Shown piece after piece: positions 5,708 through 57,958 of a DNA stretch of 64,000 bases. The position numbers and the translations under genes were made by a program. The stretch is taken from contig JBMFRC010000009.1 of the NCBI GenBank assembly GCA_049968235.1, forward strand, positions 68,913 to 132,912, written 5' to 3'. The notes under the pieces are model-generated. The model was not told the origin of the DNA, made no database searches, and saw nothing but the letters and a program-made list of their open reading frames with translations. The DNA comes from Candidatus Hydrogenedens sp. (lineage in GTDB: Bacteria > Hydrogenedentota > Hydrogenedentia > Hydrogenedentales > Hydrogenedentaceae). Position 1 is the first letter of the stretch; each line of letters opens with the position of its first letter.

Positions 5708-7396
5708 TCATTTCACAGTATTTTGAAAATAATCACAACATTTTTTGATTTTCTTTGTCATTAATGTTGAACGCTCATATCCGCCTCGATAAATATTTAA
5801 TGTCTGTTTTGCCAATTCCAGTGGATTACTTCCTTCCAGATTATCTCGTTCAAATTTCGTAACAAGGGTAATAGGTTTTAAATATGAATTTAATTCCCCA
5901 TAGATTCGTATTTGTTCGTCAATTTCGGATAATAATTTAACCTGTTCACGTGCTTTTATAATCTTGCTATCCGCTATAGTATTTTTTAATTGTTCTGTAA
6001 TATGAATTCCCTGTTTATATTTTCCCGCCAATTCCTCAAAAGAATTTCGAAATTCCTTGTTCCATACCGCAAGAGTTTTTGCATCGGGAGTATTATAAAA
6101 TTGGAAAAATTTGTGAAGATTATCCGATTCTGTTTGTTTATGGGGATTCACATTAAGATGTTCCAGCCACATTAACCGATAGGCAAAGCGTAGAAAATCT
6201 TTCTCATCAATTTCTCGACGAATAACGGGATAAAATTGCAGACAACCATCGGGAGCAAATTCCGAGATATGAACATTTACATTATCCATATCGGGTGTAA
6301 GTTCATGCTGAATTAATTGTTTCTTCTTACGCGTGGAGAAAAGCCAATCAATTGCTTTGAGGACCTGCTCAGGTTGTATCTTATCTAAAGGATGAACATC
6401 GGAAGACTTTGAAGAAATATCCATCTTAAAAGAACGTTCTCTCATTTCGATAGCACAATTTCCTACGCCATAGGGACCTGTTTCGCGAAAATGCACATAG
6501 CCAACAGACACAAGCATTACAGGACATTTTACTGCCGATGCAAGATGCATAGTGCCTGTATCATTGGTTACTAATAAATGGGAGCGTTTTAATAATCCTG
6601 CCAACTGTGGAATGGTCGTTTTACCAAAAAGCGGAATTGCCAGACCGGGAACTTCCTTTTGAAATCTTTGACCCAATTCCGCTTCTGATGGAATACCTAC
6701 AAGAAATATCCGTGCCCTGCACTTTTCATGTAACTTTTTCCCTAATTGTGCAAAATATTCCGCAGGCCAACGTTTATTCGTTTCACTGGCACCCAGTTGC
6801 ATACATACAACAAAATCTTCGGGTGTAATATGATACTCCGCAAAGAGATGGTCTGTAAATTCCATTGCATTAGAATTCACCTCAAAGGTGAGTTCTTTTA
6901 CAGGTTCGGGTATCGGTTCATAGAGTTTGAATATATCGCATAAGTTCAAATCATTATAATCCCGAGAAAGAACGCTGGTAAAGAAGTAAACCGTCCACGG
7001 TCCCCGTAATGTGAATTGCCAATCTTCGGATAAATGTGCCCCGATAACTTTAGGAATTTGTGCCAATTTTAATAACAAAGCGGAAGATGTGCTGTGAGTT
7101 ATGTTATAAGCAATATCAAAGTTCCGTTGTCGTAAATCAAGAATTAACTTTTCTACCTCTTTGTATGCATTTAAATATCGGTCTGAATCTCTCGCAATCA
7201 TATCGGAGAAAATGGGGTCTTCTTGATAAATAATATAATCATTTACATCCGTATTGGCTTTAATAACCTCTTCACTCATTGCCCGTATCATAACAGTAAT
7301 ATGGGCATCTGGATATTTAATACGAATCTGACGGAATAGGGGGGTGGTCTGAATTGTATCGCCAATCCTTGCAGTTTGCAAAACAAGTATTTTCAC
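5708..7396 (-). CDS. Glycosyltransferase family 9 (heptosyltransferase-like) with a C-terminal extension of about 200 aa.
   Basis: N-terminus MKILVLQTARIGDTIQTTPLFRQIRIKYPDAHITVMIR is typical of GT9 ADP-heptose transferases. Last gene of the fliW-csrA-glycosylation operon. Confidence 0.7.
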   Translation of the reverse strand: MKILVLQTARIGDTIQTTPLFRQIRIKYPDAHITVMIRAMSEEVIKANTDVNDYIIYQEDPIFSDMIARDSDRYLNAYKEVEKLILDLRQRNFDIAYNITHSTSSALLLKLAQIPKVIGAHLSEDWQFTLRGPWTVYFFTSVLSRDYNDLNLCDIFKLYEPIPEPVKELTFEVNSNAMEFTDHLFAEYHITPEDFVVCMQLGASETNKRWPAEYFAQLGKKLHEKCRARIFLVGIPSEAELGQRFQKEVPGLAIPLFGKTTIPQLAGLLKRSHLLVTNDTGTMHLASAVKCPVMLVSVGYVHFRETGPYGVGNCAIEMRERSFKMDISSKSSDVHPLDKIQPEQVLKAIDWLFSTRKKKQLIQHELTPDMDNVNVHISEFAPDGCLQFYPVIRREIDEKDFLRFAYRLMWLEHLNVNPHKQTESDNLHKFFQFYNTPDAKTLAVWNKEFRNSFEELAGKYKQGIHITEQLKNTIADSKIIKAREQVKLLSEIDEQIRIYGELNSYLKPITLVTKFERDNLEGSNPLELAKQTLNIYRGGYERSTLMTKKIKKCCDYFQNTVK

Positions 7397-7398
7397 AG

Positions 7399-9183
7399 TT
7401 ATTTCTCCCGTAGCAGATTTTCACCAAAAATACGAACTTCATTCAAATACCAGAATACCTGAACAGGTAATGGAACATTATCATCCAGAATAGGCAAATG
7501 TTTATTAATTTCCTCCTGTAAAAAGGGTATGTCCTGAGGTAGTTTTGCAAGCCATTGTCCCAGAGGGCTATCTTTTCCATATCGTTCGATGATTTCTCCT
7601 ACAGTTCTCTGTATACGCATTCCCTTCCTCATGATTTTTCCACCATAATATTCTTTAATATAATCCAACATTTGATTGGCACGGTGCTCATAAGTATGCT
7701 CTTTTAAAGCCCGTTTTTGTGCATTTTGGGCTATCTGCTTTCTTTCTTCTTCATGTTGCAAAAAATAGTCTATTTTATTCCGAAGTGTTTTTAAGTCTGT
7801 ATAGGTAGGGATTTCATTTTGAGTATCAAATAAATTTTCTAATCCCTTACAGGGGTCGCAAAGTTGAAATCCACCTGCTGATGCAATTTCAAATACGCGG
7901 GGATTGATAGCATCAGCCTCCGGGTCAACTCCTTCATGAATGACACTGGAATGAAGGTTTAGGTTAATCTTTGACCCAGCCACAATTTTCATATATTCTT
8001 CTGTATTAAACCCTTTATTCCCTTCTACCACATGAGGGAGCAATTCTAATTCATTCCAGTTTACTCCCCATATTTTTAAGTTGTAATCAGTTAGTCCTTT
8101 TAACATCTTAATACGATTATAATATCCTGCCCCTGCAAAGGATAAATCACACCTGTATTTTTTCTCTTCGTCTGGACTTAAAGAGACAGGTGCATGAAGT
8201 TCCGGATCACATGCGGTAAATATAGGGAAATGGCAATTACAACCAATAGCATCCAATTTGTTATCAAACTCTCCGGGTTGAATATGAAAAAATAAATTAT
8301 AAAAAGGTGCTATTTCTTTCCAGTAACTAAGGTGCCGCCAGTTCTCCACAAACCAGAATGCAGTTACAATTCCTCGTTCATTCAATCTTGAAACAAATAA
8401 GTTTGTAACGGGAGCCTGCGCCATAACAATACAAATCTCCGGCTGAAATTCTAATACTTGAGCCAGGCACCATTCAGAAAGAAACTTTGTATAGAAATCT
8501 TCAAGCGAATGAGCAATTCGGGTTGTTTTCAGAGTTTTGCCGATAGCATTAAAGACATTCCACGCTATTTCAGTATCTACAAGAAGTGTTTGATGACCCA
8601 ATTTCCGAAAAGCCTGATTTAAATATCGAGTAATAGGAAGAGAACCTCCATACATAGGACCTACAATGGCAATGTTGAAGTGTTGTCGGTTGAAGCATTC
8701 CCGGGATATTCGTTTAATTAACATTTCGCAAAATTCAGGATAAATCCGACTTACAACAGGATGGAAAAAAGGTTGAGGTATTTTATCAAGATAATCATTG
8801 AAGAAAGAATCATTAAAAAGGCAATCTAATGTATCAGGAATGGCAAGTAATAGGTCATCAGGTAATAGATTATTTTGAATGGCTGTAAATGCTACGTCTT
8901 TATCGGGTTCAATGACAATAATTTTATATTCTTTCTGAATGAGTTCCTGGATATGATAACCCAATCCCAGCCCAACAACAACTACAGGCCGCTTTTTATC
9001 CAGAGAAGAACCTTCTACTAATTTTTTGGCTTCCTCTATGGGATTGTATTGGCTGTGATAAAGAAGTCCTGTTATACGAATTGTTTTTATACCTTTGCGT
9101 TTTTCGACCAATTCAACGCGTTCACTCCTATAATTTTCAGGAATTTCTTTTCTCCATTCTGCAATAGATTTAAACATCTTCAT
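7399..9183 (-). CDS. Motility-associated-factor (Maf/DUF115, MptE-like) protein fused to a CgeB-like glycosyltransferase domain.
   Basis: N-terminal region (GLLYHSQYNPIEEAKKLVEG...VVVVGLGLGYH) resembles Maf flagellin-glycosylation proteins. C-terminal region (EEYMKIVAGSKINLNLHS...RVFEIASAGGFQL) resembles CgeB/DUF3880 GT-1-like domains. Confidence 0.65.
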   Translation of the reverse strand: MKMFKSIAEWRKEIPENYRSERVELVEKRKGIKTIRITGLLYHSQYNPIEEAKKLVEGSSLDKKRPVVVVGLGLGYHIQELIQKEYKIIVIEPDKDVAFTAIQNNLLPDDLLLAIPDTLDCLFNDSFFNDYLDKIPQPFFHPVVSRIYPEFCEMLIKRISRECFNRQHFNIAIVGPMYGGSLPITRYLNQAFRKLGHQTLLVDTEIAWNVFNAIGKTLKTTRIAHSLEDFYTKFLSEWCLAQVLEFQPEICIVMAQAPVTNLFVSRLNERGIVTAFWFVENWRHLSYWKEIAPFYNLFFHIQPGEFDNKLDAIGCNCHFPIFTACDPELHAPVSLSPDEEKKYRCDLSFAGAGYYNRIKMLKGLTDYNLKIWGVNWNELELLPHVVEGNKGFNTEEYMKIVAGSKINLNLHSSVIHEGVDPEADAINPRVFEIASAGGFQLCDPCKGLENLFDTQNEIPTYTDLKTLRNKIDYFLQHEEERKQIAQNAQKRALKEHTYEHRANQMLDYIKEYYGGKIMRKGMRIQRTVGEIIERYGKDSPLGQWLAKLPQDIPFLQEEINKHLPILDDNVPLPVQVFWYLNEVRIFGENLLREK

Positions 9184-9208
9184 AAGATATGCCTCTTACT
9201 TCAATCTT

Positions 9209-12200
9209 TCATAATGATTCCAATCGTTTTAATTCCTTTCCCAGTACATTATCACTCCCAAATAACGCTATATGCTCCTTTATCATATTTACTGCTTCCT
9301 TTACCCTGTGATGTTGAGATAGGAAAGTCGAATACTTCAGGATAAGTGAAACATCTCCGGGGTAGAAATCTATAAACGCTTTAATTGTTTGTTCCGCAGA
9401 TTCGATATAGCCTAATTGTTCGCATACATAAATATATAGGTCAAGAATCCCCGGATAATCATAACTGTTCGAAAAGGCATAATTTAAGTGTTTATAAGAT
9501 TCGTGCATATTCCCTGATTGTAAATATCCCTGTCCCATGGCAAGGTGCAGACGAATATTCTCAGGTTCTTCTTGGAATACTTTTCCCAATAATTCTAACG
9601 CTGTTTGCGTTTGATTCATTGCTAATAATAGCAGTCCATAATCTATATGTAATTCATTATTTTTTTCAATTTCTAATGCTTTCAGATAACATTCTTGTGC
9701 TTTTACAAGGTTACCCGTGTGAGCATACGCTTTCCCTTCAATACTGTATCGTTTCCATAGAGGCAAGTCGCTTTCTGTTTTTGCAAGTTCAAATAACAGG
9801 TCCGTTCTCCCTGCTTCCAATAATTTGCGAACCTGTTCATTGATTTCATTTATATCCGAAGGGAGTTTTTGTGCAATAACGATATATTGGAAGGTGCGGA
9901 ACACCTCATATTCTTCGTCGCTGATTTTATCAATACAAATTTTACCCATGTGTAAATTCCCATTTTCATCACGGGGTATTATGTCCTCAGATGCTATGGA
10001 AAGAGGTCCAATAGCATTAATCAGGAGACCTGTTTTACGAATAAATTCTTGTAAAGTATCTCTCGTGTAAAATTTCAAATGAGTTATATCCTGAATTCCG
10101 GAATCACGATAGTCCCACCTCCCAAGAGATAAACCAAAAATAACACCCCAATATTGGACATTAGGAATGCTGATGATAACATAACCATACGGTTTTAGAT
10201 AACGAATTAAATTTCGCAATGCTTTCTCGGGGTGTTCTGTATGTTCTAATACATCACAACAGGTAATTACATCAAAATAATCATTTTCAAATGGGAAATC
10301 ATCCTTCTCAATATTTCCAATAAAAACTTTATCTAAAACCTTTTTGGCAATTTCAGCAATGTCAGGTACAATTTCTATTCCTACCACTTCCTCCACACCC
10401 AATTCACGTTTCATTGCTAATCCAAAATTCCCTGTAGCACAGCCAATATCGAGAACCTTTTTTGTCCCATCGGGAATATATTTTAAGACCTCTCTTCTCT
10501 CAGAAGAGTAATAGTTTATAGGTTTAATTTCCAATCGTTTCGCTTTTGTTGTATCAATCTTGAAAATTTCCTCTACCTTCTTAATAATCTGTTGGCACCT
10601 ATGGTAATAAGTATGACTCTCTAATACCTTTTGTTGTCCCTGCCTTGCGATTTGCTCTCGTTCCTCTTTATGCTCCAGATAATACCGAATTTTTTCAATT
10701 AAGTCCTTTTCATTTTCATAAATAACAAGATCTTTACCATCCTCAAACAATTCCAGAATACTATCTGCAGGGTCTGTAACTAGTAAAGCACCTCCTGCCA
10801 TACCTTCAAATACTCTCATGTTTAAATCGTAATTAATTGCAGAATTCACAACAATTTTACTTCTTGAATACACTTCCCCCATTTCAAGAGGCCATTTTTT
10901 ACCAATATAATGATTTGGAAATATTTCGGCTACTTTCATTAATAACCTTCTTCTTTTATCTCCTTCATCAGGCGATAAACTACCTACATAAGAAACATCT
11001 ATGTCACGAGACAATTCTTTTTGGGGATATAGTTCAGGACAACATGCAAGAGGTAGCCAGAAGACATAACGGACACCCTGCTCCTTAAAAAGTTTGACAT
11101 GACTTTGTTGAGCCAGAAACACAATGTCAAAATGCTTTGCTATTTCCAACCGTGTTTGAAAGTCCAGGTGGGTATCAATAAGATACGCCACACGAGGAAT
11201 ATTGAGCATGTCTATCATAGGGTCAACTGTTTTAAGACCGGAATCAACATAGATATAAAAATCTGATGGATATCCTGATGGAATACCTGCTAAAAGATTC
11301 TCTATGCGTTTATCGCCAAAGGAGGTAGGAATCCTTTGCGGAGGATATGGTGGAGGATTTTGAAATCCCCACTTATATAACAAATCTTCAGGACATCGAA
11401 AACCCGATGTTATAACATCATGGTCTTTTTCAAAGGCAAATTCAAAATATCGGGCTGTTGTGTGGGGTGAAGTTATATAATCTAATATAATGCGATAGTG
11501 CTTTTTCGCTGTTGATGGTTTTGTTATCTGAATAGAAGTGGTTTCTTTTCCACTTTGTTTCAATATTATCTTCTGCCAATTATCAACAAATTGAGATATA
11601 GGAAATTTCTTTTGAACAGTTTCTCTACCTCGTGTTCCTATTTCCCTGGCTAAGTCCGGATTTCCTAAGAGGAGTTCCAGATATTTGCGTAGCTGTGCTG
11701 GGTCAAAAGAAGTAAAGCCATCTACTCCATTTGTAATAGGAGAAGAACGATTGTTTAGAGCAACCACTGGCATACCACAAGCCATTGCCTCTAATGTAGA
11801 AAGATTATATCCATCTTCAAATTCCTGACGGGTGATATGTAATAGACAGCGGTTCAAACGATATGCAGACAGCAATTCTTCAAAGTTTATAGATGGCTTT
11901 GAATTTTCAACCCCCGGATTTTCTCCCACAATAATATTGGGTAATCCCTTGCAGAGAGCCTCCTGTAATGGGAAATCAAACATCCAGTTCCGCACCTGCA
12001 TATAATTGCCTACTCGCAAAATTACTTCTTTACTCCCCGCATAGCCTCCATATTCTTCTATATCAATTCCGGGTAGAACCACATACCCCGGATAACCATA
12101 ATCATCTCTTTTAGAAGGGGAAATAAATACGAAAGTGAATCGTTCAGATAGGATATTTATGACCTTCTCAAAATTATTAACAACAAAAACATCGTTCTTT

Positions 12201-12514
12201 GGGAGTGTTGTTTTCAGATAGGTTTTTCTGTTATGACATACAAGAATTTTAGGGCAATTTGCTTCGCGAATATCCCAGGCATTTGTTTCATTATGTGCAA
12301 TAACAATATCATAATAGCCTTTAAAAACTCGTTCCCGCCACTCATTTTCAGGGACTTCATGTAAATTTTCAGGTATAGGTCGAAATTCCGTTTTCCACTT
12401 TCGAGCAAGCAGTCCCTCGCTATATAACCCCAAATCCATCTCAAACCCTGTTTTTGCCATCAAACACATGTAAGGCTCATGAAAATTAAAGGTTAAGATT
12501 TTAAGTTGTCCCAT
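9209..12514 (-). CDS. 1101-aa multidomain enzyme: GT4-type glycosyltransferase, CgeB-like domain, class I SAM-dependent methyltransferase, C-terminal TPR repeats.
   Basis: GT4 motif EAMACGMPVVA. CgeB-like NMRVFEGMAGGALLVTDP. Methyltransferase motif I VLDIGCATGNFG, with DVITCCDVLEH and YLKPYGYVIISIPN. TPR-like helical repeats in the last roughly 300 aa. Confidence 0.7.
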   Translation of the reverse strand: MGQLKILTFNFHEPYMCLMAKTGFEMDLGLYSEGLLARKWKTEFRPIPENLHEVPENEWRERVFKGYYDIVIAHNETNAWDIREANCPKILVCHNRKTYLKTTLPKNDVFVVNNFEKVINILSERFTFVFISPSKRDDYGYPGYVVLPGIDIEEYGGYAGSKEVILRVGNYMQVRNWMFDFPLQEALCKGLPNIIVGENPGVENSKPSINFEELLSAYRLNRCLLHITRQEFEDGYNLSTLEAMACGMPVVALNNRSSPITNGVDGFTSFDPAQLRKYLELLLGNPDLAREIGTRGRETVQKKFPISQFVDNWQKIILKQSGKETTSIQITKPSTAKKHYRIILDYITSPHTTARYFEFAFEKDHDVITSGFRCPEDLLYKWGFQNPPPYPPQRIPTSFGDKRIENLLAGIPSGYPSDFYIYVDSGLKTVDPMIDMLNIPRVAYLIDTHLDFQTRLEIAKHFDIVFLAQQSHVKLFKEQGVRYVFWLPLACCPELYPQKELSRDIDVSYVGSLSPDEGDKRRRLLMKVAEIFPNHYIGKKWPLEMGEVYSRSKIVVNSAINYDLNMRVFEGMAGGALLVTDPADSILELFEDGKDLVIYENEKDLIEKIRYYLEHKEEREQIARQGQQKVLESHTYYHRCQQIIKKVEEIFKIDTTKAKRLEIKPINYYSSERREVLKYIPDGTKKVLDIGCATGNFGLAMKRELGVEEVVGIEIVPDIAEIAKKVLDKVFIGNIEKDDFPFENDYFDVITCCDVLEHTEHPEKALRNLIRYLKPYGYVIISIPNVQYWGVIFGLSLGRWDYRDSGIQDITHLKFYTRDTLQEFIRKTGLLINAIGPLSIASEDIIPRDENGNLHMGKICIDKISDEEYEVFRTFQYIVIAQKLPSDINEINEQVRKLLEAGRTDLLFELAKTESDLPLWKRYSIEGKAYAHTGNLVKAQECYLKALEIEKNNELHIDYGLLLLAMNQTQTALELLGKVFQEEPENIRLHLAMGQGYLQSGNMHESYKHLNYAFSNSYDYPGILDLYIYVCEQLGYIESAEQTIKAFIDFYPGDVSLILKYSTFLSQHHRVKEAVNMIKEHIALFGSDNVLGKELKRLESL

Positions 12515-12553
12515 GTTTCCTTTCTATTCTTTTATCTATGAAAATTAAACATT

Positions 12554-13192
12554 TTAGGTTGTTTTAATAATATATTGGATTGCCAATTGTTTTAACTGAC
12601 CCACGATTTCAGGTTCTTTTTCTGCAAGAGGAGCTAATTCATATTCCAGCAAGTCCCCAAGACCAATACAATCGTTATTTTCGAGAGATTTATATGCTTC
12701 CTCAAGAACATGATTCAATTCGTCATGATGTTCTTTTATCTTCCTTATAATAGGATTCTCTTCCGTTACATGGGAACTCAATATATTGATTATAAGTGCC
12801 TCTCTTTTTTTAATTTCACTCCATATCTCCGAAAGTTTCTGAAAAGGGTCAAATCCTTCATCCGGATTTTCACTCTGAAATACCCGAGCAATTTCACAAC
12901 ATAAATCACTTAATTCCGGTGAATATAATTCCAAATCCGCAATACCTTCCTCCACCAATTGGTAAATTGGATAGGTATTAATTTCTAATGTCCGTATATT
13001 AGAGATATTCATTTCTTGAATAGATTCTAATGACCTACCGGGATATACTTCTTGCTCATTAACTCTTAACTTTACCATTGCCAGTTGTTGACTATTAAGA
13101 AAATTCATAATCTCGTTCAGAGCCGATTGAAGTGTATCCGGCGAATTGGAAAATTGAAATCCTTTTACTCCATCAATGAGCACTTCCATCAC
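12554..13192 (-). CDS. Hypothetical acidic helical protein, 212 aa, lying between csrA and the glycosylation genes.
   Basis: No recognisable family and not flagellin-like. Its start overlaps the 3' end of csrA by about 20 nt, implying translational coupling. Confidence 0.4.
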
Positions 13193-13424
13193 GGGGGTCT
13201 CCTTTGTTGGGTTGGAAAACGGGAATATCCTTCGGGGGTTCTACCCGTGCTGCCTCTTCATTTTCCGCTTTGATTGATAGATATACCTCTTTCCGATGAA
13301 CAGGAATAGAACGCGGTGCTTCTATCCCTATTTTGACCTGATTTTCCCGTAATTCAAGCACTTTGATTTCGATATTATCGCCAATCATTATGCTTTCATC
13401 TTCCTTACGCGTAAGCACAAGCAT
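13173..13424 (-). CDS. csrA: Carbon storage regulator CsrA.
   Basis: [47 protein letters not shown] is a canonical CsrA core. The start was moved to the internal ATG at 13422-13424, which sits behind an AGGAGG ribosome-binding site. The start codon lies 1 nt downstream of the fliW stop. Confidence 0.85.
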
Positions 13425-13425
13425 A

Positions 13426-13884
13426 TTAGACCTCCTGTCTATTAGTTGGTTGTTCATTTTGGGGTTGCGCAAGGAACCATTGAACAGGGTAATCCGTTCT
13501 GTCCAATACCATTTGCTTTGCTAACCTTGTTTTTGTATTTATTACAATGGGGGCTCTTAAATTTGTCCGGATTTTGGTCGGGTCTTCCGGAACCACAAGT
13601 AATGTATATATGGAAATCTCCTGAGGAGAATCGGCTTGTAATTCATGTAAATCCTGGGGAGTAAAAGAAACCTGATAATCTGGCAAAACCTGCAAAGGTT
13701 CTAACAAAAGAAAAGCCAATGCACCATCTTCTATAGACTGAAGCCACCAAAGAGGGCTATCTTTAGGTCCTGGCAATAACATAAACTTCTGACAATTCTG
13801 AAATCCTAAAATAGGTTTTACAAATAGAAGAATTTGATTCTCATCAATTTCTATCTCACCGAATCGTGTTGTTTGTAGTTTCAT
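13426..13884 (-). CDS. fliW: Flagellar assembly factor FliW.
   Basis: [21 protein letters not shown]...[13 protein letters not shown]...[19 protein letters not shown]...PDYQV...[30 protein letters not shown] matches the FliW/DUF180 family. The start was chosen at the MKLQ methionine. The upstream AT-rich extension of the ORF is probably untranslated. Confidence 0.8.
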
Positions 13885-14164
13885 ATAATTCTGTTCATTC
13901 CTTTTTGTTTTCAGTATGCAATATTTTATTTTACAATAACAACTCATTATTATAAAAATGTGTAATATCAAATAAACATTTGTAAAATATATCGATATAT
14001 AATATAATTTACACTTAAATGTTAACATCAAGGAAGTAGTGTGTTTGGAGAAGAAAACCAGATATTGATAAAGGAGATGTTAAGATGCGACATACTGAAA
14101 AAGTAAATGATTAAAAAGAATATAATGCGTTTAAAGAACTTATAAAAGAAAACTTATCAAGGCA

Positions 14165-14956: not shown

Positions 14957-15042
14957 ATAGAAATTATAGAATAAAAAATAAATCCCGATAATTTTACCTC
15001 TTTCCCAGAAATACAATCCTTTATTGACATGAAAGTATATCC

Positions 15043-15077
15043 ATAAAAAAGCCTCTCGTAAAAAGAGAGGCTTTTTT
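15043..15077. terminator. Bidirectional rho-independent terminator.
   Basis: Perfect hairpin GCCTCTC-gtaaaaa-GAGAGGC flanked by an A-run on one side and a T-run on the other. It terminates the + strand gene ending at 14956 and the - strand tRNA-Leu ending at 15079. Confidence 0.7.
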
Positions 15078-15078
15078 A

Positions 15079-15165
15079 TGGTGCCCGGGAGGAGAATTGA
15101 ACTCCTACCCCATTTCTGGGACCAGATCCTTAGTCTGGCGCGTCTGCCATTTCCGCCACCCGGGC
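15079..15165 (-). tRNA. Class II (long variable arm) tRNA, most likely tRNA-Leu. The anticodon loop reads CUAAGGA, so the anticodon appears to be AAG.
   Basis: Hand-folded: acceptor GCCCGGG/CCCGGGC, discriminator A and CCA are encoded. D-stem is 3 bp. Anticodon stem CCAGA/TCTGG. Long variable arm CCCAGAAATGGGG. T-arm AGGAG-TTCAATT-CTCCT. Confidence 0.7.
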
Positions 15166-15273: not shown

Positions 15274-15528
15274 TCAAAGCATAGGTTCATGTCTCCCTTT
15301 ACCAGGACCATTCGGATGACGAAGACAGAAATTCGTAGTCATGCCGGCAATAGAACCGAACTTCTTCCCACAATATTTGCAAATATATGTCTCTTTCTCC
15401 TCTCCCTCATAAGGTACATGTCTCCCCTTACCGGGACCATTCGGATATCTTATGCATGCGGAAGATGTTAAAGACTGGACACTGGTTGCTTGTTTCCCAC
15501 AATATTTACAACGATAAATAGTAGTCAT
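15274..15528 (-). CDS. Small tandemly duplicated zinc-ribbon-like protein, 84 aa.
   Basis: Two copies of Y-x-C-K-Y-C-G-K-x(11-13)-C-[IL]-R-[YH]-P-N-G-P-G-K-G-R-H-x-P. Weak GGGAAG ribosome-binding site upstream. Confidence 0.5.
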   Translation of the reverse strand: MTTIYRCKYCGKQATSVQSLTSSACIRYPNGPGKGRHVPYEGEEKETYICKYCGKKFGSIAGMTTNFCLRHPNGPGKGRHEPML

Positions 15529-21508: not shown

Positions 21509-21790
21509 TTAGGGTTTTATTGTCATTTTTAAAAACCTTTTGCATGTAGGGGCATCACAACGAAAGTCAATAGGAATTACATTACCTTTTCGAGCCTGGT
21601 TAATAATATCTAAATATATCTGTTTTACAGTCATATTTTGAATAAAATCAAATAAATTTTTGCCCAAAATCTTCTTGGATATAATTTCCTCCCCAAAATT
21701 ATTTAAAGCGAAACGGTCCCATTCTTCATTGACAAAAATAATGTTTTTTTCTGTATCAATTTTATATTCAATTGGGTTCATGTTAGTCAT
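21509..21790 (-). CDS. Small PAS-like domain protein, 94 aa.
   Basis: NIIFVNEEWDRFALNNFGEEIISKKILGKNLFDFI has a PAS signature. The given ORF was trimmed to the MTNMNPIEY start because its upstream part overlaps two tRNA genes. Confidence 0.45.
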   Translation of the reverse strand: MTNMNPIEYKIDTEKNIIFVNEEWDRFALNNFGEEIISKKILGKNLFDFIQNMTVKQIYLDIINQARKGNVIPIDFRCDAPTCKRFLKMTIKP

Positions 21791-21895
21791 CCTTTTATGG
21801 GTGTATAATACCCGGTTTATATAAATATTCTCTATATTTGAATTATGCCACCTTTTCTTTGTAAAATTAAACCACCATGATAATGGTGGCGGCAT

Positions 21896-21970
21896 GGCGG
21901 CATGGCCAAGTGGTAAGGCAGAAGCCTGCAAAGCTTCCATTCCCCGGTTCGAATCCGGGTGCCGCCTCCA
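21896..21970 (+). tRNA. tRNA-Cys (GCA).
   Basis: Hand-folded: acceptor GGCGGCA/TGCCGCC, anticodon loop CTGCAAA, T-arm CCCGG-TTCGAAT-CCGGG, CCA encoded. Confidence 0.85.
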
Positions 21971-21983
21971 TCTATTTCGTCGT

Positions 21984-22067
21984 GGGCGAGTGGTGGAATA
22001 GGAATACACGACGGACTTAAAATCCGTTGGCCGTAAGGCCATGCGGGTTCGATTCCCGCCTCGCCCA
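21984..22067 (+). tRNA. tRNA-Leu (TAA), class II.
   Basis: Acceptor GGGCGAG/CTCGCCC, anticodon stem-loop ACGGA-CTTAAAA-TCCGT, long variable arm GGCCGTAAGGCC, T-arm GCGGG-TTCGATT-CCCGC. No CCA encoded. A T-rich tract follows. Confidence 0.85.
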
Positions 22068-31354: not shown

Positions 31355-32305
31355 ATGAAGAACATTAGAGTTTGTGTCGCAGACGATAATAAGGATGAAG
31401 TCCTTATATTATGCGAAAGTCTAAAATTACATAACTATGAAGCAATCCCTGCTTTTTGTGGAATGGAAGTGATTGATTTATGTAAGAGCAAGAATGTAGA
31501 TTTGTTGTTATTAGACATAGGACTTCCCGATATAGATGGTATTGAAGTATGCAGAAGATTAAAAGCAGACTCTGATACCCATGATATTCCTGTAATTTTT
31601 GTAACAGCCAGAGGTTCCTCGCAAGATGTTGCTTTAGGGCATGATTTAGGTGCGGTTGATTATATCGCAAAACCTTATAATCTACCCATGGTCCTCGTTG
31701 TAGTGGAAATGGCTTTACGAACCCTGCATACCTCCGCTTATGTGGATAGCCCGGTCGAGTTCTGGGATGACCCTATCTATACAGACCCGTTAACAGGGCT
31801 GAGAAATTATCGTTATTTAATGGAACGATTGGAAGAGGAAATTGTCCGAACAGACCGACACAAAACACCTCTCAGTTGTATCGTTATGGATTTTGCCGAC
31901 TACAATATTGACGAAGAAGAAACTACAGAACGAACAGAATTGATAGAAAGCGAATCATTCCTGCAAGATGTTGCCTTAGCATTAAAACAAAATTCCCGTA
32001 GTTGCGATATTTTGACAAGGTTCGAAGCATCAAAATTTGTCATTGTGCTCCCCAATCAAAATCTTGAAAGAGCAATAAAATACGTACAAAAAATATCACG
32101 AGAAGTTGAAAAAAACTTTTTAGAAGATGAAAAAACAGTTTCTTTACAATCAAAATTTGGGATTGTAAGTTGTAAAGATAAATGTATCCCCTCCGGAGAA
32201 GAACTTTTAGGTATTGCTATGAAAAATCTATTAAGAGCTTTTACCCGCCCCGGAATTAACATCGTAGGAAAAGACCTCACAGAGAAAAAAGAAGTTTTTC
32301 TCTAA
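31355..32305 (+). CDS. Response regulator: receiver domain fused to a degenerate GGDEF-like domain.
   Basis: REC motifs (VADDNKDEV, LLLLDIGLPDIDG, K-P). C-terminal DPLTGLRNYRYL start of a GGDEF fold, but the GG(D/E)EF site is replaced by RFEASKF. Confidence 0.7.
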   Translation: MKNIRVCVADDNKDEVLILCESLKLHNYEAIPAFCGMEVIDLCKSKNVDLLLLDIGLPDIDGIEVCRRLKADSDTHDIPVIFVTARGSSQDVALGHDLGAVDYIAKPYNLPMVLVVVEMALRTLHTSAYVDSPVEFWDDPIYTDPLTGLRNYRYLMERLEEEIVRTDRHKTPLSCIVMDFADYNIDEEETTERTELIESESFLQDVALALKQNSRSCDILTRFEASKFVIVLPNQNLERAIKYVQKISREVEKNFLEDEKTVSLQSKFGIVSCKDKCIPSGEELLGIAMKNLLRAFTRPGINIVGKDLTEKKEVFL

Positions 32306-48786: not shown

Positions 48787-49555
48787 ATATGAGACCTCTG
48801 AATAAGTCATTCGAGTTAGCTAGTATGTATAAAGATATTATATACGAGAGGGGGTGAAAAAAAAATGAAACGAGATAAGAGAGAAAAGTGCTATAAATAT
48901 AGCAGAAGTATTTTGGGTTAAATAACAAAGCAAGGGAAAAATAAAAATGAAGGAAAATCAACGTAGTATGGTAAAAAAGATAGAGCAAACAAGTTTTATA
49001 GATTACGAGATGTTCCATCAGAAACCGCCTCGTCGTAGATGTTCTTTGAGGCAGATGCAAGAAGTAATACTATGGAAGGAACTTGGGTAGAGGGCGTATA
49101 GGGAGGAGTATATAAGGTGAACAGGGGAGAACGAAGACTTACGTCCTTACTATTTTATGCATTATTGAGCAGTGCGTGATAATGTCTATGTGCTTTTGTG
49201 GCTATTACATCCAAATCTTTACCTTTTCTTTTCTCAGTATTTTCTTTGGTTGATTATATTTTTTCCCCACTACCAAAGAACACGGAGGTGCATGGAGGAT
49301 ACGGTGGGGTACAGTGAGACATAGGGAGAGGAGTATATCATTTCTTCTGAATGACTAAATATATTTGAAATGGATGTATGATTAGAGGTATGCATAGATA
49401 CAAAAAGATAGAAAACGGACAGAAAAAACAAAATAAATTGATAAAAGTAGAAATACAGACTTTTGTATTTTAATTTCTCATCGGGATTTTATCTCGTAAA
49501 AATATATATAATTTATACCATTACCTCTTACACCACTTTTTCAGAGGTCTCATAT
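48787..49555. mobile_element. 769-bp non-coding element bounded by a perfect 16-bp inverted repeat (ATATGAGACCTCTGAA). MITE-like, or a candidate invertible segment.
   Basis: Left end 48787-48802 is the reverse complement of right end 49540-49555. No credible ORF inside. Internal imperfect repeats (AGGGAG(G/AG)GAGTATAT twice). The right repeat overlaps the last codons of the methyltransferase gene. Confidence 0.45.
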
Positions 49556-50503
49556 CTTTTTTTGGTCCCTCAATGTATTCCGTTCCCAGAATACTCCATC
49601 CACATAGCCTTGAATTGTTCTATCAGAGTTGGCTAATTCTAATCGTTTTTCTGCTAAACAGCAATAAGTTTCGTCGATTTCTACCCCGCAATATTGCCTT
49701 CCTAATTTTTTAGCCACAACACATGTAGTCCCTACACCCGAAAACGGGTCAAATATAAAATCACCTTCTTTTGAACTGGCAAGGATAATTTTCGCTACGA
49801 GTTTCTCCGGTTTTTGTGTTGGATGGTCTGTATTCTCAGGCATAGACCAGAACGGCACAGTTATATCTGTCCATAAATTAGAAGGATATGTAAGCCGATA
49901 ATTGCCATCGGTTTCTACTTTCCAATCTTTAGGGTTACCTGTTTCATCACGATAAGGTGCAATTACTTTCCGTTTCAGCATTACCGCTTTGCTATTAAAA
50001 TAAAATTTATTTGAGACCGTTCCAAACCATATATCTTCCGAACAATTTTTCCAGTTATTCTTCGCACCTCTACCTTTTTCCCGTTCCCATGTAATTCGAT
50101 TTCGCACCTTAAAATATTTTGACATAACTCGATAAATAGCGGAGGAAGATTTCCAATCTCCACAGATATAAATAGAACCTGTCTGCTTTAATATCTTTCT
50201 CAACGGTTTTAACCAGGAATCCATCCATATTTCATACTCTTCCGAAGACATTTCACGAAATTTATTCGAATTAAAGTCTTTATGCAAATTATAAGGGGGG
50301 TCTATAAATAACAAATCAACAAATGATTCAGGTAAAAAGTCAATAACTTCAAACAAATCTTGATGAAGAATTTTGTTGGTTATCTTCTCAACCGATACAG
50401 GATGGTTAATTCGTAAAATCTGTTTCGTATAAATCGATACTTCTTGTTTTGAGAGGGTTGTTGTCCTATTCCGTCCTGCTTTAAGATGTTTATCTACTGA
50501 CAT
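49550..50503 (-). CDS. Beta-class DNA (N6-adenine or N4-cytosine) methyltransferase, apparently orphan.
   Basis: Motif IV DPPY (LLFIDPPYNL) comes before motif I (IFDPFSGVGTT). No restriction endonuclease gene is adjacent. Confidence 0.8.
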   Translation of the reverse strand: MSVDKHLKAGRNRTTTLSKQEVSIYTKQILRINHPVSVEKITNKILHQDLFEVIDFLPESFVDLLFIDPPYNLHKDFNSNKFREMSSEEYEIWMDSWLKPLRKILKQTGSIYICGDWKSSSAIYRVMSKYFKVRNRITWEREKGRGAKNNWKNCSEDIWFGTVSNKFYFNSKAVMLKRKVIAPYRDETGNPKDWKVETDGNYRLTYPSNLWTDITVPFWSMPENTDHPTQKPEKLVAKIILASSKEGDFIFDPFSGVGTTCVVAKKLGRQYCGVEIDETYCCLAEKRLELANSDRTIQGYVDGVFWERNTLRDQKKI

Positions 50504-50556
50504 ACCTACTTTTTTGTAGTCGTATTATATACGAGCAAATCCTTTTTAATAAATAA

Positions 50557-50915
50557 TGGTGGAGGCGGCGGGAATCGAACCCGCGTCCGAAGATGTTTCA
50601 GTGCGGACCTACTACATGCTTAGCCCATCCTTTATAGATTCGCCATTGCGGAGCGCCTCAGGGCGGGCTCACCACAACCGCTATGCGGGATAGTTACTGC
50701 CTTTCAGGCACCGCAAATCCCAAAAGGACAGACCTGCTGGTTGACGCCCCAGTCCGTTAGCAGGCAATCACGGGTGGGACGCGCTGCGCGTATTAGGCAG
50801 CGAGGGCCAATTCTTGATTGGCAGTTGTTTGCGACCGGCTTTTAACGAGGCCAACCGGTCAACCTCGGCATGCATTCCACACCTCAACCATCCCCGTCGA
50901 AACCTTTTCGCCCCC
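50557..50915 (-). ncRNA. ssrA: tmRNA (SsrA).
   Basis: On the - strand the 5' end is GGGGGCGAAAAGGTTTCGACGGGG. The 3' tRNA-like end is GGACGCGGGTTCGATTCCCGCCGCCTCCACCA. The internal tag reading frame ends ...GCC AAT CAA GAA TTG GCC CTC GCT GCC TAA (ANQELALAA-stop). Confidence 0.9.
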
Positions 50916-51079
50916 AGCAACATCCTATTATTCAATTGTTGTATTATATTATACGATATTTGATATCTAAAAATTTACAATAAAGATAAATTTTTTCAAT
51001 AATATATTATTCTATTACTTATGTTGTCCCTATCTTTCTGGCTAAGATAAAATTAGACATGTCGAGAGGAAGTGAAGTA

Positions 51080-52719
51080 ATGAAAAATTTCTTCTCAAAA
51101 AAATCCTGCAAATCAATCTACTACCCTTTTGGATTCATTTTTTCTATCGTGCTAATTAATACGATTGCAAATAGTGAAGGAAATCAACCAACATCTTTAT
51201 CTACAACAATAGACCCCATTACTCGTTATATTCACATTTCATATACAGTCCCTGCAGGTACACCCGGAGAAAAACAATCTTATGCTCATGATCTCCTATG
51301 GACAGACAACACATAGTCCTGAAACAAACCCATTACTACACAGGTTATACCGAAAGTAGAATTGATTATATTAAGTTAGTCCCCTTATCCACAGAACAGG
51401 TACAAATGTTAGAAAGCCAATTTGGAACACCCGACAAAATCGTTGCAGGCTATTTTGAACCTTACTCATGGGCATTCTTCGAGGATATACAGGAAAGCCT
51501 GCAACATCGAGAACCTATTTCCACATATAAGGAAGCACGAGTTAATATCGTAGACATCCAGGTGGGTCGCTTCGGCATGAAAGTCGTTTATGAATCACGC
51601 TTAACCGACCAATTTCTTTACAACACTATCGGCGACCCTATCGGCGGTGTTATCCCCCATACAAGTAATGTCGGAAAAATGCAACAAATGACCAACACAT
51701 TACAAACCGAACTCCAATATGCCCACGAATTAGGCTTAACCGCACACGCCAACTTCGGAGCGACCTACTGCTATCCCGACACACCATTACAAAGTGATTT
51801 TTCAAAACAACACCCCGATTGGATGACGGACGGATTATTGAGATATGACATACCCGAAGTTCGTCAATATATCTTATCCTTACTAAAAGAGACGCTTGAA
51901 ATTGGTGCAGATGGCATCTCCATAGATTTTTGTAGGTATCCCGGTGGTATTGACAAACCTGAAACTTGCAATCAATTCCTGCGAGAACTCAAAGCACTAC
52001 GCGAAGAATTTGCAAAAAAACGTGATAAATCCATACCCTTATTACTCCGTTTCCCGGCGGAAGGTGTAAGTCTCTGGAAAAATTTCGACTACAACACATG
52101 GATTCATGAAGGATTAGTTGATTACCTCTGCCCAAGCAACATCTAGGGCAGACATATGCACTTCGACATCACCCCATACAGCAACGCCGTTCGTGGCTCA
52201 ACATGCAAACTACTCCCCGTCATTGATGGATTAAGTTGGGGACTCGAAATACCCGCCCTATTCCTATGGCGTATCCATCAACTCTACCAGGCAGGCACCG
52301 ACGGCATTTATGTATACCAATCCGACGCACGCATCTGCACCAATAAACGACCAGAAGACAGACGCTGTATACGACTCATTTCCAGTAGCGAAGCAGTTCA
52401 TAACTGGTGGCAACGATACAACAAACAAAATCAACAATTTAGCAAACGCATCTGGATACAACCCTCCGAAGACGGAGACCTCGAATACCATAACTGGGAA
52501 CGCTGTCGAATCTGGGTAGAAGGAATTACCCCTAACGAGGTCCAAATCCTCCTCGATGGACAACTCACCAATACTTATACTCAACCTCCCTAAATACTTG
52601 GCGGAGAAGATTACACCTACGATAACCTTATCACCCCCGGCACACACACCCTCACCATCCACGCCAAAACACAAGACACCACTCTATCCCAAACTTTCAC
52701 CATCTCCGGCACAAAATAA
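51080..52719 (+). pseudogene. Disrupted GHL10/DUF4015-like glycoside-hydrolase-like gene (frameshift plus two in-frame stops).
   Basis: Signal-peptide ORF in frame 2 (MKNFFSKK...) runs into the frame-1 ORF near 51290-51300. Frame 1 then continues through TAG 52144-52146 and TAA 52591-52593 to TAA 52717. The motif GADGISIDFCRYPGG resembles GHL10 DGIHLDYIRYP. The C-terminus has an Ig-like beta segment (YTYDNLITPGTHTLTIHAKTQDTTLSQTFTISG). Confidence 0.55.
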
Positions 52720-52792
52720 TAAGAACATTTATATTTCCGAACATCTTTCTCCCTTTTAAGAGATGAAACATTTTTTGTTCCTAAATTTTGTT

Positions 52793-53056
52793 TTATAAGG
52801 ATAGAATTACACTATTAGAATCTACCCCATATTTATTGAAATATTGGTTTATATCCTTATAATGTTTTATTCGGTGAGGGTCCAAATAATACAATTCCCA
52901 ATGGCTAAGACTATTTATTATATAGTCCATGATTCTTTCATATTCTCTTTCATTCCGAATCACGTGTTCGTAATAATTCCTTTGCCATGACTTCCTGTTT
53001 TCGTTTTCCAATCCAAAATTCTTATCCCCACATATATAGCCATTTGTTGTCATCAT
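52793..53056 (-). mobile_element. C-terminal fragment of an IS200/IS605-family Y1 (REP-associated, RAYT-like) transposase. Probably a remnant.
   Basis: WQRNYYEHVIRNEREYERIMDYIINSL parallels the RAYT/TnpA(IS200) C-terminus (FWEHAIRN..DY...DYI..NP). The HUH-containing N-terminal half is missing. Confidence 0.5.
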
Positions 53057-53155
53057 CTTAAATCACTGTAATACTTTTGACAGTAATACCTACGATGATA
53101 CTTGTATTGGCAAATCCATGTGTTCACTTTAAATATTAATAACATCTACAGAATT

Positions 53156-54475
53156 TCAAAACTCGAATTTCAGTACCCAGGCGTGTTGGCATGGGATTTG
53201 GGCAGGGGAGACGCAAGGTGTAGTTATAACTATTTGCCCGTATTGGTCTTCCGCATTTACCGGAATGTCTGTGCCGAGTAAGGTTACTTTGGGCACGGTC
53301 TGGAACTCAGCTGGTTTGGGGATGGTCCATGTCTCGGGGGGCCATTTCAACGCTATGGCATATATTGCATTCCCTTTGCGTGTGAAACGGAAATTCTCCA
53401 TCTTCGGTGCATCTTTCCATACATCCGTTCCGTAGATAGCATCACCGTTAACTTCTAACCATTTGCCCATCTCCAACAACCGTTCCTGCATTATCTCCGG
53501 TATGCGTCCATCTGCGGATGGACCTATGTCCAATAGTAGGTTACCACCCCGTGAGACATTATCTATGAGCAGGTGAAGCAATTCCGCGGTGCTACGGTAA
53601 TTTTCCGCCGTCTCATTTCGGTTATAACCAAATGACCGACCCATACCCTGGCACTCTTCAAACAGTCCCTTTTCCATCAACGGACCCTCGGGGATATGTC
53701 CATACTCAGGTGTTGCAAAACCTCCATGTATATTACGACAATCTTTGCCCCAGCGGTCATTTACAACGATATCCTTTGGTGCGGGCGATTCATTAAACAG
53801 CCAAGCTAAAAACTCCGTGCTCCGCCAGACAGAACTCGGATGGTCCCACTCCCCATCAGACCAGAACACATCCGGTTGATAGCGAATAATTAAGTCTTTC
53901 ATCTGCGGTAACATATGTTCCTCTACATAGCGATGTACATCCTGTTTATACAGCGGGTTGAACCATTCATATAATGAGTAGTAAAACCCGGCTTTAAGTC
54001 CAGCATTCTTTACTGCACTGATAAGGTCGCCTGCGAGGTCTCGATGCGGTCCGATGTCCATTGCGTTCCAATTCCAACTTTGCATACTGGGCCACATACA
54101 AAAGCCATCGTGATGTTTGGATGTCAAAACGACATATTTCGCACCCGACCTTTTAAATATATCTGCCCATTGGTTCGGGTCATATAATTCTGCTTTGAAC
54201 ATTGGTGCAAAGTCCTGATATTGGAATTTTTCACCATATTTCTCAACATGGAATTTCCATGTGGCACCCTCTTTATTTTGCATGTGATTCCAATACCATT
54301 CCGAATAAGTTTCCTTGGGTGCCCATGACGGGACGGAATATACCCCCCAGTGAATAAAAATACCAAATTTGGCATCTTCAAACCATTGCGGATTAGGTCG
54401 CTGGTCCAATGATTCCCATGTGGGCTCATAAGCAGTGGCAATAGCGGTCGCAATAACAAAGGATGTTAATAACAT
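53156..54475 (-). CDS. Alpha-L-fucosidase (GH29), secreted.
   Basis: FGIFIHWGVYSVPSW and HHDGFCMWPS are GH29 motifs. N-terminal signal-like segment. Confidence 0.85.
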   Translation of the reverse strand: MLLTSFVIATAIATAYEPTWESLDQRPNPQWFEDAKFGIFIHWGVYSVPSWAPKETYSEWYWNHMQNKEGATWKFHVEKYGEKFQYQDFAPMFKAELYDPNQWADIFKRSGAKYVVLTSKHHDGFCMWPSMQSWNWNAMDIGPHRDLAGDLISAVKNAGLKAGFYYSLYEWFNPLYKQDVHRYVEEHMLPQMKDLIIRYQPDVFWSDGEWDHPSSVWRSTEFLAWLFNESPAPKDIVVNDRWGKDCRNIHGGFATPEYGHIPEGPLMEKGLFEECQGMGRSFGYNRNETAENYRSTAELLHLLIDNVSRGGNLLLDIGPSADGRIPEIMQERLLEMGKWLEVNGDAIYGTDVWKDAPKMENFRFTRKGNAIYAIALKWPPETWTIPKPAEFQTVPKVTLLGTDIPVNAEDQYGQIVITTPCVSPAQIPCQHAWVLKFEF

Positions 54476-54500
54476 AAGATATGCTCCTATCGTTTAAAAT

Positions 54501-56867: not shown

Positions 56868-56946
56868 ATTTGTTTCTCCATGTTTGGATTTAATAATTGT
56901 TATGGCAAAAAAGGAAAGATAAATGCAAATAAAGTTGGGGGAGAAT

Positions 56947-56974
56947 CGGACGGGTCGGACGGGTCAGACGGGGT
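56947..56974. repeat. 9-bp tandem repeat array A, (CGGACGGGT)x3 in GTCRGACRR register, just 5' of tRNA-Pro.
   Basis: The same family is seen in arrays at 57113-57168, 57544-57598 and 57786-57822. Confidence 0.7.
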
Positions 56975-57024
56975 GATGGTGAAATTGCTATTTTTGAGGT
57001 AGAATAGATATAATAGTGTTGTTT

Positions 57025-57102
57025 CGGGGCGTAGCGCAGTCCGGCTAGCGCACTTGGTTTGGGTCCAAGGGGTCGCCGGTTCAAATCCGGCCGCCCCGAC
57101 CA
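57025..57102 (+). tRNA. tRNA-Pro (TGG).
   Basis: Acceptor CGGGGCG/CGCCCCG, anticodon stem-loop CTTGG-TTTGGGT-CCAAG, T-arm GCCGG-TTCAAAT-CCGGC, discriminator A, CCA encoded. Confidence 0.85.
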
Positions 57103-57112
57103 TGAAGTTAAA

Positions 57113-57168
57113 GGGTCAGACAAGTCAGACGGGTCGGACAGGTCAGACAAGTCGGACAAGTCGGACGA
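57113..57168. repeat. 9-bp tandem repeat array B, (GTCRGACRR)x6, immediately 3' of tRNA-Pro.
   Basis: Reads GTCAGACAA GTCAGACGG GTCGGACAG GTCAGACAA GTCGGACAA GTCGGACGA. Confidence 0.75.
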
Positions 57169-57195
57169 AAAAACACAAAATAGAAAGGAAGGGTT

Positions 57196-57786: not shown

Positions 57787-57822
57787 AGTCGGACGGGTCG
57801 GACGGGTCGGACAAGTCGGACA
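57786..57822. repeat. 9-bp tandem repeat array D, (GTCGGACRR)x4, immediately after the four-helix-bundle stop.
   Basis: Reads GTCGGACGG GTCGGACGG GTCGGACAA GTCGGACA. Confidence 0.75.
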
Positions 57823-57958
57823 TTTAAAACAGATAAAAATGAAAAAAAATAAACGAATCAAATTGAAGGCTATACCTCCCGTTAATTTGCCAGGATAATC
57901 CTTCCTATTTTACTATTTGAGTATTCTAATTTTATGAAATTAATAGAAAGGGATTGTC

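Follow-up and report, generated by a model that had tools for sequence, protein, structure and literature searches.

A FliW-CsrA gene pair joined to a putative flagellin-modification module in Hydrogenedentota

Introduction

Why should fliW and csrA, a gene pair whose canonical loci carry flagellin beside csrA, be followed by a set of glycosyltransferase genes? The question is raised by a stretch of 64,000 nt from Candidatus Hydrogenedens sp. (assembly GCA_049968235.1, contig JBMFRC010000009.1, positions 68,913 to 132,912 of the forward strand), which was analysed whole and is referred to below as the window. At positions 5708-13884, six minus-strand genes lie head to tail: fliW, csrA, a gene of the uncharacterised family DUF8042, and three genes for transferases. 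With moderate confidence, we read them as an operon of Hydrogenedentota in which a flagellin-modification module is fused to the FliW-CsrA homeostasis pair, the flagellin gene being located elsewhere in the genome. What is new is how the known parts are arranged; the system itself is not of a new kind. Gene content, packing, conservation of the block, two homologies (of the DUF8042 protein with a 120-aa protein encoded between Maf genes, and of one transferase with the Maf N-terminal domain) and a flagellar context in five other lineages are established; the functional steps of the model (adaptor, flagellin docking, glycan building, methylation) are all ones that we infer.

Organization of the operon

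All six genes are co-oriented and nearly gap-free, a layout that an earlier sequence-only reading of the window had described and that the list of open reading frames (ORFs) and a reading of the DNA bear out, coordinates included. The first gene, fliW (13426-13884, 152 aa, ATG at 13884), stops 1 nt ahead of csrA (13173-13424, 83 aa, ATG at 13424), which is preceded by an AGGAGG Shine-Dalgarno sequence. The DUF8042 gene (12554-13189) encodes 211 aa from an ATG at 13189 that lies 17 nt inside csrA, behind AAGGAG. An alternative GTG at 13192, one codon upstream, is the start chosen by the ORF-finder (212 aa) and brings the overlap to 20 nt. After 39 nt follows the gene of a 1101-aa multidomain enzyme (9209-12514; ORF, Pfam and NCBIfam), after a further 25 nt that of a 594-aa enzyme (7399-9183; ORF, Pfam and hhalign), and 2 nt beyond it that of a 562-aa protein with a long version of glycosyltransferase family 9 (GT9; 5708-7396; ORF and Pfam). 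Pfam and NCBIfam agree with the labels first given to fliW, csrA, the GT4-CgeB-methyltransferase-TPR enzyme and the GT9 enzyme, and layout and domains together confirm that FliW-CsrA is joined to glycosyl- and methyltransferases in one co-oriented, almost gap-free unit. This spacing suggests that the six genes form one operon and are transcribed together.

An alignment of upstream regions from five close relatives contains a conserved block ahead of fliW (13909-13944, minus strand; AGTTGTTATTGTAAAATAAAATATTGCATACTGAAA), which is a candidate promoter of the sigma-70 type and may serve as such; no sigma-28 consensus or promoter was seen in these aligned regions. Promoter and terminator scans of the region gave no enrichment over shuffles, and a search of the cluster against Rfam yielded no regulatory RNA, of the CsrB/Rsm type or otherwise.

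Conservation across Hydrogenedentota

A genome scan with one genome per species, for which an alignment of 14 sequences served as the query, returned 80 loci. About 60 of these carry fliW-csrA-DUF8042 followed by the three enzymes, between flanks that are unrelated, and the six genes keep an identical order in relatives down to 35-53% identity. Counted in the related loci long enough to judge, fliW and csrA lie upstream of the DUF8042 gene in 55/55 and the 1101-aa gene lies downstream of it in 52/55, while the 594-aa gene is present in 42 of 46 and the long GT9 gene in 37 of 42. Given these counts, the arrangement is not due to chance. Across the phylum, the median gap is -20 nt from fliW to csrA, +14 nt from csrA to the DUF8042 gene, +2 nt from the latter to the 1101-aa gene (mostly without a Shine-Dalgarno sequence) and +2 nt from the 594-aa gene to the GT9 gene, a spacing that indicates probable translational coupling.

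By record label, the cluster loci include 39 from Hydrogenedentota and 14 from "Nitrospirales/Nitrospiraceae" (L014, L019, L020, L023, L027, L029-L031, L042, L053, L058, L059, L062 and L067). One of the latter, L042, is 74% identical in DUF8042 and has flanking genes in common with Hydrogenedens; because of these shared flanks, the Nitrospirales-labelled bins are probably taxonomically mislabelled.

FliW, CsrA and the distant flagellin

FliW scores 121.8 bits for Pfam PF02623 (cut-off 25), begins with an MKLQTTRF that is common to relatives, and has its closest solved structure in the Geobacillus FliW of the FliW-CsrA complex 5DMB (chain A, E 4.8e-23). CsrA (Pfam, 92.4 bits; NCBIfam equivalog NF002469, 93.2 bits against a cut-off of 73) is closest to chain D of the same complex. 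The alignment continues through IKAEN55EEAA, and the protein has a C-terminal extension in which N55 is kept. In B. subtilis, the N55 region of this extension is where CsrA binds FliW. The locus therefore resembles the FliW-CsrA-flagellin partner switch of Bacillus subtilis, Geobacillus (5DMB), Campylobacter and Borrelia in both the CsrA extension and the adjacency of fliW and csrA, which are co-oriented with a 1-nt gap in the window and a median overlap of 20 nt in 57 related loci. It differs in what follows: canonical loci have flagellin beside csrA, as do those of Verrucomicrobiota, whereas in Hydrogenedentota the genes of the putative adaptor and of the transferases come next after csrA, with flagellin at a distance of more than 10 kb.

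In many related genomes outside the genus Hydrogenedens (L009-L063), csrA overlaps fliW by 20 nt, and those csrA 3' ends that were translated give a tail of the N-L-I-P-R type just ahead of the DUF8042 Shine-Dalgarno sequence. The genus Hydrogenedens has a different, longer CsrA tail that overlaps the DUF8042 start.

The absence of flagellin in cis, noticed at first reading, extends to a much larger sample: neither the window nor 903 kb of related loci gave a match to flagellin, FlgK, FlgL, FliD or FliS, and in none of the approximately 60 genomes does a flagellin lie within 10 kb of the fliW-csrA-DUF8042 block. The same queries readily match in the loci of other phyla. In a catalogue of 179 Hydrogenedentota genomes, flagellar assembly genes occur in 72%, and its KEGG tables record flagellin (K02406) in 113/179 and fliW in 106/179 (PMC11406978). 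All three Hydrogenedens terephthalicus assemblies are listed for flagellin, FliG and FliN, and FliR, MCP and CheA are listed in this species as well (PMC11406978). In their DUF8042 and FliW proteins, H. terephthalicus and the window share 88-93% identity. The sequence-only reading had named a lack of flagellar genes anywhere in the genome as a refutation of its flagellar interpretation; in this congener flagellin and other flagellar genes are on record, and that refutation fails. The only other regulator of a motility-lifestyle type seen in the window is a response-regulator-GGDEF diguanylate cyclase (31355-32305, plus strand).

The DUF8042 protein

The DUF8042 ORF, left unassigned at first, is the most informative gene of the cluster. 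Precomputed annotation places the protein and its close relatives in Pfam DUF8042 (PF26154), and relatives also match TP0873_N (PF27299). The AlphaFold2 (AF2) model (pLDDT 90.6) comprises a ubiquitin-like beta-grasp at residues 1-75, similar to TP0873_N, and a long four-helix bundle at 76-209; fold searches gave generic four-helix bundles only. An exhaustive profile search of 1.84 billion proteins gave 306 representatives of the family, nearly all of 200-210 aa. Within the motif DLLEYE, D180 is nearly invariant, and D180-L-L-E183 has a D-x-x-E spacing. FlaG, FliS and FlgN, the profiles first suggested for this ORF, were rejected as identities, with no Pfam or NCBIfam match and structural matches to generic helical bundles only. 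BLAST gave no match between the protein and B. subtilis FliS, and no flagellin-like sequence was found in it.

A clue to function comes from Clostridia. The flagellar locus of Cellulosilyticaceae is arranged FliD-FliS-Maf-(120 aa)-Maf, and hhalign matches the 120-aa protein with residues 76-197 of DUF8042 (98.7%, E 3.7e-16), a span that includes the motif LSDLLEYELIP; a relative 91% identical to it carries PF26154. Because its bundle is homologous to this protein encoded between two Maf genes, the DUF8042 protein resembles GlfM. In Shewanella oneidensis, GlfM (SO_3260) is a predicted four-helix bundle of 89 aa encoded beside Maf-2; it binds Maf-2, which needs GlfM both to bind and to glycosylate flagellin (Unay, Kint and Viollier, bioRxiv 10.1101/2023.12.03.569772). 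Its last helix has two strictly conserved residues, D77 and E80, of which D77 is essential; the family is found in flagellar loci of Gram-negative as well as Gram-positive bacteria, with glfM downstream of maf-2 in most genomes examined (bioRxiv 10.1101/2023.12.03.569772).

The likeness has several parts. The DUF8042 gene stands beside a glycosyltransferase gene (that of the 1101-aa enzyme here, Maf in Verrucomicrobiota, Auribacter and Cellulosilyticaceae), the C-terminal part of its product is a predicted four-helix bundle, and, as with GlfM, flagellar loci of both Gram types are represented. The acidic D-x-x-E in the last helices (D180/E183) has the spacing of D77/E80 in SO_3260 and may correspond to it. 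Gene order is different, since the DUF8042 gene follows csrA and not maf-2. By analogy, the DUF8042 protein is proposed to be a GlfM-like adaptor, a two-domain relative of that family.

The three transferases

According to Pfam and NCBIfam, the 1101-aa enzyme joins a GT-B/Glyco_trans_1_4 module (GT4-like), a CgeB-like module (DUF3880 and Glyco_trans_1_2), an S-adenosylmethionine (SAM) methyltransferase (residues ~675-830) and tetratricopeptide repeats (TPR; ~910-1080). In FlmG and Maf-1, the TPR domain is the part that binds flagellin (bioRxiv 10.1101/2023.12.03.569772). Like FlmG of Caulobacter and Maf-1 of Shewanella, the 1101-aa enzyme fuses TPR to a glycosyltransferase; in contrast to them, it has two GT-B modules and a methyltransferase, and binding of flagellin by its TPR is suggested by analogy.

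The 594-aa enzyme, conserved at about 50% identity across the phylum, had been labelled Maf(DUF115)-CgeB, and only part of that label stands. The MptE-like/DUF115/MAF_flag10 domain (PF01973) is not matched at E <= 0.01 in Pfam; genuine Maf proteins of loci L073, L076 and L080 score 123-155 bits for it. Maf_flag10_N (PF20157) reaches 22.6 bits, under the gathering score of 23.5. Nevertheless, residues ~8-160 are homologous to the N-domain of genuine Mafs from related loci (hhalign 99.7%, E 1e-26, 152 columns), and a homologue of the enzyme (P0237) carries a precomputed PF20157 match. With Maf as the query, tblastn matches the 594-aa gene only for Maf residues up to ~185. In Foldseek, the AF2 model (pLDDT 91.1) is matched best by GT4 enzymes (7qsg, BshA, SdgB) and not by Maf. 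As predicted from these alignments and the model, the enzyme is a chimera in which a Maf N-domain is fused to a CgeB-like catalytic part with a GT-B fold of the GT4 type, a combination that is previously undescribed and that also occurs in Geobacter. The Maf N-domain and the CgeB-like part of the earlier label are thereby retained, and the DUF115/MptE catalytic domain is dropped. The argument that Maf proteins are hallmark flagellin glycosyltransferases does not apply as it was put, the domain that defines Maf being absent. Whether the supposed DUF115-like region is kin to Maf had been treated as decisive, and the answer is divided: there is no DUF115 domain, yet the N-domain is homologous to that of Maf.

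The N-terminal domain is common to the 594-aa enzyme and to Maf of Magnetospirillum (5MU5) and H. pylori (Jhp0106/PseE), but the 594-aa enzyme lacks the central MptE-like/MAF_flag10 domain and has a GT4-type GT-B catalytic part in its place. Because of this difference, its donors are probably not CMP-nonulosonic acids.

The 562-aa protein scores 93.8 bits for Glyco_transf_9 in Pfam and stays under every NCBIfam cut-off for equivalogs of the lipopolysaccharide (LPS) heptosyltransferases (best 104.4 against 134.6). It has the GT9 domain of RfaC, RfaF and RfaQ and, in addition, a helical C-terminal region of about 210 aa. Homology of this extension with DUF8042 was considered and ruled out (hhalign probability 0.9%).

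Flagellar context in other lineages

Outside Hydrogenedentota, homologues of the DUF8042 protein, the 594-aa enzyme and the long GT9 recur in flagellar or flagellin-glycosylation loci of Verrucomicrobiota, Auribacter, Geobacter, Bacteriovorax and Clostridia, in support of the earlier claim that the enzymes are tied to flagella. In Verrucomicrobiota, the locus has the order FlgK-FlgL-FliW-CsrA-flagellin-FliD-FliS-...-DUF8042-Maf-...-Maf, each family being confirmed by Pfam. In Candidatus Auribacter, the DUF8042 gene is followed by Maf and by PseG/PseC-like genes. In Geobacter, it lies among CgeB-like glycosyltransferases after fliS, and nearby are a GT9 of 514 aa and a homologue, 598 aa long, of the 594-aa enzyme. 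The Bacteriovorax locus, which includes fliS and flagellin, has a long GT9 ahead of DUF8042. Full-length homologues of the 562-aa GT9 occur in the flagellar loci of both Geobacter and Bacteriovorax.

The simplest history would derive the Hydrogenedentota operon from a late-flagellar locus of the Verrucomicrobiota type by loss of the flagellin-fliD-fliS segment, which would have brought csrA beside DUF8042 and the transferases. The sequence-only reading had called the arrangement unusual. That is fair, though only modestly so, since a canonical late-flagellar locus minus this segment can explain it.

Proposed function and alternatives

On the reading of the six genes as a flagellin-modification operon, the DUF8042 protein would be a helical-bundle adaptor of the GlfM kind which, docked on a flagellin glycosyltransferase, assists that enzyme in engaging flagellin. 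The 1101-aa enzyme would bind flagellin through its TPR, as FlmG and Maf-1 do, and would add and O-methylate sugars. The Maf-N/CgeB-like enzyme and the long GT9 may then extend the glycan with nucleotide-hexose or nucleotide-heptose donors, in place of the nonulosonic acids used by Maf. Co-transcription with fliW-csrA would let the modification machinery appear alongside the system through which flagellin translation is released at the onset of secretion, and stop-start coupling (DUF8042 to the 1101-aa gene, 594-aa gene to GT9) may fix the ratios of the products. If correct, this provides a function-level lead for the uncharacterised DUF8042/TP0873_N family (about 300 representative sequences in at least 7 lineages) and would mean that adaptors of the GlfM type also accompany transferases that are not Maf enzymes. 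For the question of whether the FliW-CsrA checkpoint includes flagellin modification in its wiring, this widespread and uncultured phylum offers a natural test case.

Several points weigh against this reading. The GlfM comparison is indirect, since it passes through the 120-aa inter-Maf protein and not through a validated GlfM sequence (SO_3260, Kurthia). With 211-212 aa and an additional beta-grasp, the DUF8042 protein is much longer than the 89-aa GlfM, and its partner enzymes lack the Maf catalytic domain, whereas Maf-2 is the only known partner of GlfM. GT9 enzymes normally act on LPS, the CgeB name derives from a spore-coat function, and the substrates assigned here are inferred only. Co-transcription of the six genes is read from spacing alone, and the flagellin gene of this metagenome-assembled genome from the KEGG tables of congeners. 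One related locus, L044, consists of fliW-csrA-DUF8042 without transferases. In Omnitrophota, DUF8042 homologues adjoin genes with no recognisable flagellar link, and in Brevinematales/Spirochaetota (L082-L084, 9404-15100) a 294-aa DUF8042/TP0873-like gene is directly upstream of a che operon, whose genes are named cheR, cheB, cheA and cheW from size, order and N-terminal sequence only. Because of the Omnitrophota and spirochaete contexts, the DUF8042 family may do more than assist glycosylation.

A protein of 611-630 aa without a Pfam match is encoded directly upstream of DUF8042 in two Omnitrophota loci (L066, 8024-9916; L069, 7718-9553). It holds the usual position of Maf and may represent an unrecognised transferase family.

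The Omnitrophota loci also favour a different product, namely a non-flagellar surface glycan (LPS core or exopolysaccharide) built by transferases that merely happen to lie downstream of fliW-csrA, with DUF8042 as a general helper. LPS heptosyltransferases make up the GT9 family, and heptosyltransferase II is the best NCBIfam match of the 562-aa protein. Polysaccharide loci often encode CgeB-like, GT4 and TPR domains, with PEP-CTERM and exopolysaccharide matches among those found, and a nucleotidyltransferase gene lies 1.7 kb upstream. Yet every LPS heptosyltransferase equivalog is under its cut-off, the 594-aa enzyme has the N-terminal domain of Maf, and this enzyme and the long GT9 recur in the flagellar loci of Geobacter and Bacteriovorax. 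Moreover, the block has stayed with fliW-csrA in 52/55 genomes although the flanks change, and it includes no flippase, polymerase, lipid-carrier or export genes. A non-flagellar glycan is consequently regarded as improbable.

Equally improbable, in our estimate, is a main role for DUF8042 within the FliW-CsrA switch as its third component, either modulating FliW or CsrA or standing in for flagellin as the FliW ligand, with the transferases as passengers. What speaks for such a role is the constancy of the fliW-csrA-DUF8042 core, which is complete in all 55 loci when the enzymes are present in 37-52 of 42-55, and which L044 retains without them; the DUF8042 gene also starts inside or just after csrA, with a start region as GGA-rich as that of csrA itself. 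However, the partnership does not hold outside the phylum: there the neighbours of DUF8042 are Maf, CgeB-like or GT9 genes, and fliW-csrA is not adjacent even if one locus includes both, as in Verrucomicrobiota. Within the operon, stop-start coupling ties DUF8042 to the 1101-aa enzyme. The homology of its bundle with the inter-Maf 120-aa protein argues for the adaptor as well, and the lack of flagellin-like sequence does not fit a flagellin stand-in.

A third alternative, in which a non-flagellated lineage has turned FliW-CsrA to the regulation of a target that is not flagellin, would suit the lack of flagellar structural genes in the window and in the 903 kb of related loci, and that of a sigma-28-type promoter upstream, but is very improbable in view of the flagellin, FliG, FliN, FliR, MCP and CheA listed for H. 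terephthalicus and the flagellin and fliW counts of 113/179 and 106/179 in the phylum.

Possible CsrA control of the adaptor gene

Under the flagellin-modification reading, FliW-CsrA might also gate glycosylation directly. The translation-initiation region of DUF8042, within the 3' end of csrA (13170-13210, minus strand), contains three GGA motifs (AAGGAG, AUGGAA and AUGGAG) and is a possible CsrA-binding site, a candidate by sequence. The start regions of csrA and DUF8042 contain at least two GGA in 90-93% of loci; for fliW and the transferase genes the range is 25-54%. In 53/58 relatives, AUGGA covers the start codon of DUF8042. Predicted hairpin loops contain a GGA in 32-36% of csrA and DUF8042 start regions and in 7-18% of those of other genes, a modest excess that is suggestive and is not evidence of binding. 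The M-[DE]-V-x-x-D-G peptide conserved in DUF8042 imposes part of the GGA signal. A precedent for CsrA acting on the gene of a flagellin glycosyltransferase is the H. pylori Maf homologue jhp0106, reported to be under CsrA/RpoN control (as cited in PMC7988653).

In the fullest form of this hypothesis, CsrA would bind and repress the GGA-rich start of the adaptor gene and, via stop-start coupling, control the 1101-aa enzyme, so that glycosylation capacity is tied to the state of FliW and flagellin and the adaptor and enzymes are made only when flagellin secretion frees FliW. The beta-grasp may contact FliW, CsrA or flagellin and thus bridge homeostasis and modification. Because the conserved peptide accounts for part of the GGA signal, CsrA repression is considered unlikely, and so is the fullest form of the hypothesis.

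Other features of the window

Upstream of the operon, the strongest terminator-like site of the region (15041-15081, minus strand), a near-perfect hairpin of 17 bp followed by a T-rich tail, sits between an Mrr_N gene and the gene of an 84-aa protein (15274-15528, minus strand). This protein consists of two copies of YxCKYCGK...R[YH]PNGPGKGRH with faint zinc-finger Pfam matches only, and its gene is kept beside a nucleotidyltransferase gene in the relatives L005 and L006. A 177-aa ORF at 21509-22042 (minus strand) was rejected as spurious, being antisense to two tRNA genes (21896-21967 and 21984-22067).

Farther along, a tmRNA gene (50557-50915, minus strand) adjoins an N6/N4 DNA methylase (49550-50503). 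From 50 to 58 kb, GC content is 0.40-0.43, higher than before, and the genes in this part include one for an alpha-L-fucosidase and an arabinofuranosidase-like one. Next come a tRNA (57025-57099) and then a 1132-aa PLD+SNF2 helicase, and the whole region 49550-61357 may be an integrated island or a defence region at the tmRNA gene.

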